Part shown: piece after piece, positions 5,857 to 6,740 of the stretch
Layout: each line of letters opens with the position of its first letter
Numbering within the stretch: the first letter of the stretch is position 1
DNA from: Eledone cirrhosa
Lineage: Eukaryota
DNA length: 64,000 nucleotides
NCBI GenBank assembly: GCA_964016885.1
Contig: OZ024758.1
Location: 28,024,001-28,088,000 of the forward strand
Reading direction: 5' to 3'
Translations under genes and position numbers: made by a program
Notes under the pieces: model-generated
The model's input: the letters and a program-made list of their open reading frames with translations, nothing else
The model's database searches: none
Told to the model about the DNA's origin: nothing

Positions 5857-6740
5857 AAATTAGTAGTGGGCAGACTAATTTGCATAGAGTGTGAGTACGC
5901 ACCGGTTCAGCGGAGACGATAAAAACAAATAACGAAACGAAATTAAATTTCGTTTCGTTTGTAACTCACTTTTGTATGACTGACGCTTAAACAATTAAGG
6001 TAAAAAGAAAGGTGTTTCCTCGAAAACCAGTATGACTCTAAAAACCGGTTTGTCTGTGTGTTTACATACAGAATAGCTGGGTTACTCACAGTAAAGTAAT
6101 CAGTGAAAGAATTGTTACATCTACATATGTATACGTGTGTGTATTCATATGCATACTAGTATTTCAGTATGCATATGTAGATGTACATTTTTAACTTAAT
6201 TGTTTAAGCGGCAGTCATACAAAAGTGAGTTACAAACGAAACGAAATTTAATTTCGTTTCGTTATTTGTTTTTATCGTCTCCGCTGAACCGGTGCGTACT
6301 CACACTCTATGCAAATTAGTCTGCCCACTACTAATTTTCATAGAAAAAGCATATAACGATATGTGCTTTTACGATTCTCCAGAAAGGCCGGTAGATAGGT
6401 AAATATTGCTGATGAGTTGTAACAACAACGAAACTAGTTCAATATTCCTTGTCTGGCTTTCTGGAGAATAGAGGAAAGATGTTTCCTCGAAAACCAGTAT
6501 GACTCTAAAAACCGGTTTGTCTGTGTGTTTACATACAGAATAGCTGGGTTACTCACAGTAAAGTAACCAGTGAAAGACTTGTTACATCTACATATGTATA
6601 CGTGTGTGTATTCATATGCATACTAGTATTTCAGTATGCATATGTAGATGTACATTTTTAACTTAATTGTTTAAGCGTCAGTCATACAAAAGTGAGTTAC
6701 AAACGAAACGAAATTTAATTTTGTTTCGTTATTTGTTTTC
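5857..6740 (+). mobile_element. Non-coding Penelope-like/retrozyme-type element: partial tandem of a 467-bp unit plus an inverted 5' segment
   Basis: 6013-6273 repeats at 6480-6740 (period 467). 5857-5999 is the reverse complement of 6195-6337. Contains a hammerhead motif and no ORF. Confidence 0.75.
6374..6469 (+). ncRNA. Type I hammerhead ribozyme
   Basis: AATATTG-CTGATGA-GTTGT aaca ACAAC-GAAA-CTAG-TT-CAATATT. Stem I is extended by ATTCTCCAGAAAG/CTTTCTGGAGAAT. Stem III is minimal with a palindromic CTAG. Confidence 0.85.

Follow-up and report, generated by a model that had tools for sequence, protein, structure and literature searches.

A 467-bp hammerhead repeat, present in many copies, probably accounts for the element at positions 5857-6739 of the window, by which we mean the whole 64,000-nt stretch of Eledone cirrhosa DNA analysed here. 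The element would be a dispersed copy of this repeat, likely of the retrozyme type, copied in trans by the RT/GIY-YIG protein of a Penelope-like element, itself probably Neptune-type. The family is likely a new one of retrozyme type and the locus a copy of the monomer class, the class itself being published. It combines a 3' end fixed at an internal site with a TA target, an inverted head, and a copy of more than one unit that crosses the cut site. Its ends are unusually legible, in the Penelope style, and they point to the mobilising enzyme; the mobiliser of animal retrozymes has so far been deduced from co-occurrence and from homology to pseudo-LTRs.

Structure of the locus

By self-comparison, the element consists of an inverted head (5857-6006) followed by 1.57 head-to-tail copies of an ORF-less unit of 467 bp. 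The full unit lies at 6007-6473 on the plus strand, with 35.5% GC, no ORF and no tRNA. A partial second unit (0.57 units, without a hammerhead) follows on the same strand at 6474-6742 and is identical to 6007-6275 at 263 of 269 positions, so that the direct repeat has a period of 467. The original prediction had this period right and placed the restart at 6480, where self-comparison gives 6474. It had also described an inverted copy of part of the unit at the 5' end, and indeed the 150 bp of the head, on the minus strand, are the reverse complement of 6188-6337 with 148 identities. The outer end of the head falls 62-65 nt past the usual 3' end of the family. Elsewhere within the 64-kb window, self-comparison finds no further copies of the unit.

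The absence of an ORF, predicted as well, is confirmed by a longest Met-started reading frame of 22 aa and a longest stop-to-stop frame of 62 aa; there are no tRNA genes in 5000-8000. Both of the further hairpins that had been noticed in the unit are present. The long one, TACATCTACATATG..CATATGTAGATGTA, is at 6116-6186 (plus strand) and occurs a second time at approximately 6583-6653. The other, with 13 bp, is at 6235-6263 (plus strand), again at 6702-6730, and inverted at 5931-5959; it sits 9-12 nt upstream of the fixed 3' end, a position that makes it a candidate RT-positioning element. Folding the 467-nt monomer, as had been proposed, gives -155.7 kcal/mol for the linear unit (z -9.6), a stability reached by none of 100 shuffles, and in the predicted fold of the unit as a circle 69% of the bases are paired. 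Rfam matches to miRNA precursors (the best to MIR841, 70.4 bits for a cut-off of 200) have their source in the inverted repeat and the hairpins, and we rejected them.

The hammerhead motif

The unit contains a canonical type I hammerhead with an extended stem I at 6374-6469 on the plus strand. The core CTGATGA (6409-6415) is followed by a 5-bp stem II (6416-6420 with 6425-6429), by GAAA (6430-6433) as the second part of the core, by the palindrome ACTAGT (6433-6438), and by a GUU triplet whose last base is 6439, with the predicted cut between 6439 and 6440. Stem I has 7 bp (6402-6408 with 6440-6446), and a bulged middle helix separates it from a distal helix of 13 bp (6374-6386 with 6457-6469), all on the plus strand. 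This is the complete type I hammerhead of the original prediction; all of its pairs hold on checking, and a strict descriptor fitted to it has one match in the window and none in 100 shuffled windows. The region folds with a z of -5.9, and none of 200 shuffles is as stable.

The Rfam model Hammerhead_HH9 (RF02275) aligns with the motif over the whole model at 38.6 bits (E 4.8e-8), under the gathering score of 52, and no ribozyme family in Rfam reaches its gathering score in the window; the comparison with Rfam hammerhead models, suggested at the outset, thus succeeds in alignment and falls short in score. Core, stem I bulge and loop II geometry are alike in the two, and the bulge and loop II of the unit, where the loop 1-loop 2 tertiary contacts of animal retrozymes would form, align with those of HH9 with partial letter matches, but helix III is shorter in the unit. 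The unit's hammerhead is not a member of RF02275. In amniotes, HH9-type motifs are isolated conserved copies and are not known as a mobile repeat.

The locus holds just one ribozyme, because the second copy stops before its own hammerhead. Such a copy cannot release a monomer by itself. In the energy model, a dimer of hammerheads has -16.6 kcal/mol versus twice -6.0 for the open monomers, that is, it is 4.6 kcal/mol more stable, and the lowest-energy fold of the monomer, 2.9 kcal/mol below the open fold, mispairs part of the core. On these two modelled results, cleavage is predicted to depend on the dimer.

The family in sequencing runs

The family is described here from 4 of the 24 listed sequencing runs (X1, X4, X5 and X8, from 3 studies), all of them as contigs, compared with a rotated unit (6100-6566) as reference. 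None of the four is on record as RNA, nor does the list of 24 name an RNA run containing the stretch, which says nothing about expression either way. The material shown comprises 17 of the 64 loose ends and 32 of the 1,212 pieces, and variants are listed from 4% upwards. Run X1 has 1,125 matching contigs: 523 at 99% identity or more, 381 at 95-99%, 173 at 90-95%, and 48 lower, so that 904 of the 1,125 are alike at 95% or more. Runs X4, X5 and X8 have 21, 36 and 11 matching contigs. The family is thus multi-copy, abundant and young, and the unit has 19 variable places in X1. Contig depth is not copy number, and the latter cannot be read from the depths in X1; the depths, taken with this restriction, are roughly even around the unit except for a drop after 6275 in three of the four runs. 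X1 allele fractions at 6380-6397 are unreliable, as the depth there is between roughly one fifth and two thirds of its normal level.

The head-to-tail joint of period 467 occurs in X1 and X4 (two of the four runs) with letters that differ from those of the window, which shows that other copies cross that point, not necessarily with two hammerheads. This recurrence and the 1,125 contigs in X1 speak against a single-copy assembly duplication, the alternative that the original prediction had itself raised. No array with two hammerheads appears among the pieces listed, where the contigs are short and no listed piece spans the stretch.

Within the window, the two units agree in allele at all 11 listed polymorphic places of their overlap. 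They have six differences, one of which sits at the 3' junction. At 6211, 6479 and 6722 the allele of one unit is at or near 0% in X1 or is unlisted; at 6100 and 6111, close to where the compared stretch ends, the same reading depends on the letters of joints and loose ends. The pattern agrees with a single template followed for more than one full turn, with later drift of about 1% per copy, and it agrees as well with a homogeneous source array as the origin of two near-identical units.

In run X4, a contig at 6319-6478 spans the whole hammerhead with one difference from the window, and at a similar depth X5 has several haplotypes; X4 may sample few source loci. Part of the stretch is contained in 20 of the 24 listed runs, from 16 studies and with 17 coded organism labels. 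X1-X4 may come from the source organism, and the summed depths of X5 and X8 are approximately 1,000- to 50,000-fold under that of X1. Close relatives, carry-over or horizontal transfer may alike explain the stretch under other organism labels, and we do not claim transfer. In X8, some 34 bases around the 3' hairpin stand within unrelated sequence (loose ends before 6222 and behind 6255), under another organism label and at a depth above that of the rest of the unit; this is possibly a different element with the same hairpin, or chance. As expected for animal DNA, there are no matches to the hammerhead pattern or to a 27-base pattern of the unit in metagenome contigs, and none in viral contigs or prokaryote genomes. 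A sequence look-up finds this DNA in no other stretch of the collection.

Variants and the RNA fold

Of 23 variable places listed, we dropped 6211 and 6479, where the allele of the window is private, and tested the remaining 21 against the minimum free energy circular fold. On the plus strand, 4 of the 21 variants break pairs versus 8.5 expected when the same changes are randomly placed (P 0.01), and with all 23 variants there are 5 pair-breaking changes versus 9.3 expected (P 0.018). Pairs with a probability of 0.5 or more are broken by 2 of the 21 versus 8.0 expected. On the minus-strand fold, 10 variants are pair-breaking and 9.2 are expected. These P values are optimistic, because the sites are linked in subfamilies and the fold is taken from the window's own sequence. 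The variants of the family spare the plus-strand fold, which is support for selection on RNA structure and not proof of it. It is on the plus strand only that variants keep pairs through G-U wobble, and this strand-specific keeping of pairs points to selection on RNA.

Conservation of the core and stems among copies had been named as a check on the original prediction. In the four runs, the catalytic core, stem I and stem III have no variant at 4% or more; taken by itself, the sparing of the core is not significant (one variant in 41 positions, 2.0 expected, P 0.39). Stem II carries T6417A in X1 (133,191 of a depth of 365,528), and with the partner change at 6428 not listed, the stem is broken as tabulated. 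In X5, a 22-letter loose end before 6450 reads T at 6428, has C at 6439, which makes a GUC site, and lacks 6449; it shares 30 letters with an X5 contig of the same depth as T6417A (30.8). From these two overlapping X5 pieces we infer that a subfamily likely has a compensatory stem II swap (6417/6428) together with a GUC triplet.

Ends and target site

Both flanks of the element are (TA)n. The left flank (4715-5856) is a degenerate (TA)n/(CATATA)n microsatellite, which would be the insertion target, and the right flank is (TA)n/(TAT)n. A candidate 11-bp target-site duplication has its left copy at 5839-5849 and an identical right copy at 6740-6750 (plus strand), where the right flank begins; a 7-nt filler (5850-5856) stands between the left 11-mer and the inverted head. 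The 11-mer was picked after the fact and is present in 15 of the 1,086 25-nt windows of the left microsatellite.

The window's second unit ends at 6739-6742, equivalent to unit position 6272-6275, and this is the recurrent 3' end of the family. Among the loose ends listed, pure (AT)n stands behind 6275 in six contigs of X1 and in one of X5, which belongs to another study, and one X4 contig also stops at 6275. The main arm, 733 nt or 1.57 units, crosses the cut site and ends 300-303 nt past it, in what the predicted fold has as a single-stranded stretch just 3' of the 13-bp hairpin. The fixed 3' end thus lies inside the predicted RNA, with 164-167 nt left to the next cut. Copying of a cut linear monomer would stop after about 300 nt; as the arm has 733, the template must have been a circle or an uncut multimer.

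The extension of 62-65 nt is at one end only, at this locus. The stretch between the two ends of the locus, 6273-6337 (plus strand), is a candidate tail, and it stops at the 3' base of the stem 6313-6337. Neither an end at 6337 nor the inversion joint is found among the listed part of the loose ends and pieces. Partial tandem, inverted head, TA target and end extension would together match the anatomy of Penelope-like insertions.

In one X4 contig, 83 letters of unrelated sequence lead into the unit at 6212. This joint (6212-6215) can slide by 3 nt, and unit positions 6212-6214 (CAG after a T-rich stretch) are then a possible 3' splice site. Possible origins of this entry are a read-in by splicing, truncation of a copy, and a partner that has this end in common with the unit.

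Proposed mobilisation

In the pathway we propose, longer tandem arrays elsewhere would be transcribed on the plus strand. Two hammerheads are predicted to pair via the ACUAGU palindrome, to cut after U6439 and to release monomers of 467 nt, which a host ligase would close into circles. To judge by the ends, the partner would nick a TA microsatellite on both strands, with about 11 nt between the nicks, and each nick would prime synthesis at internal sites within the RNA. The main cDNA would start 300-303 nt past the cut site, 3' of the hairpin, at the end seen to recur, and would run for 733 nt across the cut site on a circle or an uncut multimer, a choice of templates that follows from the sequence. 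A second cDNA, reconstructed from this one locus, would start 365 nt past the cut site and run for 150 nt to give the inverted head. With priming from both nicks at two internal sites, the locus would thus be explained in one step. The copy itself would be a dispersed product and not a source that produces circles. The mobilisation by a Penelope-like element put forward in the original prediction gains support from the junctions (fixed internal 3' end, TA target, end extension).

The proposal draws on the Penelope-like protein of the anole, which cuts AT-rich DNA and extends both strands, and for which two internal RNA start sites bound the tail (PMC11167929). A more specific version is possible and, in our judgement, rather doubtful: the RT/endonuclease of a Penelope-like element would copy a ribozyme-made RNA circle by rolling, with both target strands primed at once from two fixed internal sites, 6272-6275 and 6337, on either side of a structured recognition element. 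If true, such rolling copying would name the long-sought mobiliser of animal retrozymes, inverted heads and tails would come from one mechanism, and the element would hold a compact cis-signal for the TA-targeted insertion of RNA circles. A 2020 review states that no motif in retrozyme repeats identifies the mobiliser (PMC7761336), and a 2026 preprint still describes the mechanism of mobilisation as open (10.64898/2026.07.22.740005). In vitro, hammerhead mutants of the anole element do not impair insertion and the main template is uncut RNA (PMC11167929), and of nine predicted dimers of Xenopus retrozymes eight show no cleavage (10.64898/2026.07.22.740005); these two reports weaken a role for cleavage.

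Relation to known elements

The unit is closest to the animal non-LTR retrozymes of coral, mussel and axolotl, with which it shares a non-coding head-to-tail unit, low GC, a canonical type I hammerhead, a strongly self-paired predicted circle and many copies (PMC7229834; 10.64898/2026.07.22.740005). Metazoan type I motifs have a helix I of about 6 bp, a helix II of about 4 bp, a helix III of 1-2 bp and a palindromic loop (PMC4209133), and with its short helix III and palindromic loop the unit's hammerhead fits this description. Its helix III is like that of the axolotl HHR_Amex1, of which the monomer cleaved 6% in an hour and the dimer much better (PMC7229834). With 467 bp, the unit is slightly longer than the 150-450 bp first reported for such retrozymes (PMC7229834) but within the 51-972 bp of the preprint (10.64898/2026.07.22.740005); the main texts of both sources do not describe a fixed internal 3' end, a TA target or an inverted head. 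The preprint calls a retrozyme active when at least two consecutive units each have a complete hammerhead, whereas the locus, with one hammerhead, falls in its monomer class.

Described Penelope-like insertions form partial tandems; many also have an inverted head with 5' truncation and, on one side, a tail of 30-40 bp, and (TA)n is a preferred target in some clades (PMC8557442). With Neptune and Poseidon elements (PMC8557442; PMC11167929) the locus has in common the partial tandem, the inverted 5'-truncated head, the extension at one end, an AT-rich or (TA)n target, an internal RT start and a hammerhead within the repeat. The unit differs from them in having no RT/GIY-YIG ORF and a canonical rather than minimal hammerhead, in an extension of 62-65 nt versus a tail of 30-40 nt, and in a start about 300 nt past the cut versus about 85-92 nt (111-118 minus 26) in the anole element (PMC11167929). 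Animal pseudo-LTR hammerheads have an unpaired base after position 9 and a helix II of 7-8 bp (PMC4209133); the unit's hammerhead has a helix II of 5 bp and, on pair checking, no such base. The unit is not an autonomous Penelope-like element, as shown by the missing ORF, the missing inserted base and the 5-bp helix II. The initial assignment to a retrozyme or a non-autonomous Penelope-like element is supported, with the qualification that the hammerhead is of the canonical retrozyme type and not of the minimal pseudo-LTR type.

The non-autonomous Chlamys elements (such as MRC1, from Chlamydomonas) likewise have pseudo-LTRs and multicopy head-to-tail insertions, but most lack canonical hammerheads, and they generally share 3' sequence with their autonomous partners (PMC8557442). 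For the unit, the one candidate in the window shares no such sequence.

Among the titles and abstract openings on hammerheads, retrozymes and Penelope in octopus and cephalopods, we found no description of the family; repeat databases and most subscription papers lay outside this search, and the family may be catalogued. The literature search turned up no example of a cephalopod retrozyme.

Alternative explanations

The main competitor, which we consider unlikely, is that the unit belongs to an autonomous Penelope-like element as its pseudo-LTR and survives as a 5'-truncated and internally repeated remnant, with no free monomer RNA or circle. The same insertion anatomy would be expected (PMC8557442), Xenopus retrozymes are homologous to pseudo-LTRs (10.64898/2026.07.22.740005), and the X4 contig that enters at 6212 from 83 letters of other sequence would agree with it. 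Against this, other copies also show the unit joined to itself at period 467, and its canonical hammerhead has neither the unpaired base after position 9 nor the helix II of 7-8 bp. Of the contig sequence compared with the unit, a fraction of 0 in X1 and of 0.02 in X5 continues into unlike sequence, within the limits set by short contigs.

Inversions can also be made by L1-style twin priming. A retrozyme-type RNA copied by a LINE, such as the abundant RTE-like family of the window, with the inversion arising in this way, seems to us a little less probable still. An open frame of 1,040 aa (51092-54214) and many fragments, also amid simple repeats, put such a family in the window, and the literature leaves LINEs possible as mobilisers (PMC7229834), but the unit has no similarity to any LINE in the window. 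Moreover, the fixed end lies inside the predicted RNA, and starting internally is described as a property of Penelope-like elements alone (PMC11167929). Spread as DNA, either by satellite-type recombination or as a rolling-circle, hairpin-rich non-autonomous transposon, with a vestigial hammerhead, is at odds with the retroelement pattern of the ends: a 3' end that is fixed, a 5' side that varies, and an inverted head. The unit is hairpin-rich and tandem, no RNA run is among those listed, and satellite-like expansion from pseudo-LTRs has been proposed (10.64898/2026.07.22.740005); pairs kept through G-U wobble on the plus strand only, pointing to selection on RNA, make this an improbable account. 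An assembly artefact, in which a single-copy stretch was collapsed or duplicated, is very improbable: the element does adjoin a microsatellite of 1.1 kb, and the inversion joint is absent among the contig pieces listed, but the three overlapping copies differ from each other, and contigs that carry other alleles have the tandem joint and the 3' end as well.

Other elements in the window

A 5'-truncated Neptune-like element lies between (TA)n tracts at approximately 20410-21277 (plus strand). Its coding part has a GIY-YIG-like frame (within the ORF 20365-20823) and a C-x4-C-x2-C linker, and the linker fits the CX2-5CxxC motif given for Neptune (PMC8557442). The GIY-YIG-like domain is placed by the Atlas, at 0.96, in a cluster with PF01541 on 42% of its members; in Pfam the frame has no match at E 0.1, and none of 37 candidates among longer proteins is a homologue. 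A degenerate hammerhead-like core of the minimal type, with an extra base after position 9, is at approximately 21035-21075 and matches no Rfam ribozyme family. Between the unit and the 3' region of this neighbour we find no DNA similarity, as 188 and 102 of 200 shuffles scored as well. The neighbour shows that TA-targeting Penelope-like elements exist in this genome, and it represents a candidate class of partner, not an identified partner.

The RTE-like LINE family, with AP endonuclease, RT and a PHD-finger match, includes fragments at 19088-20086, 21902-24594 and 29356-32446, and the copy at 51092-54214 (plus strand), whose open 1,040-aa frame has RT and AP endonuclease. SINE-like sequence and RTE-type LINEs give the window an octopus-like appearance. 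A 40-bp minisatellite extends from 7215 to about 8700, with some 39 copies that are 91-95% alike. A tRNA-like match at 37036-37093 (minus strand; 29.7 bits, cut-off 29) is probably a tRNA-derived SINE head, and a related 15-mer recurs at 6937 and 8922. At 41000-46600 there is a low-complexity, G/T-skewed repeat tract, with a GC skew of more than 0.9 at 42001-46000.
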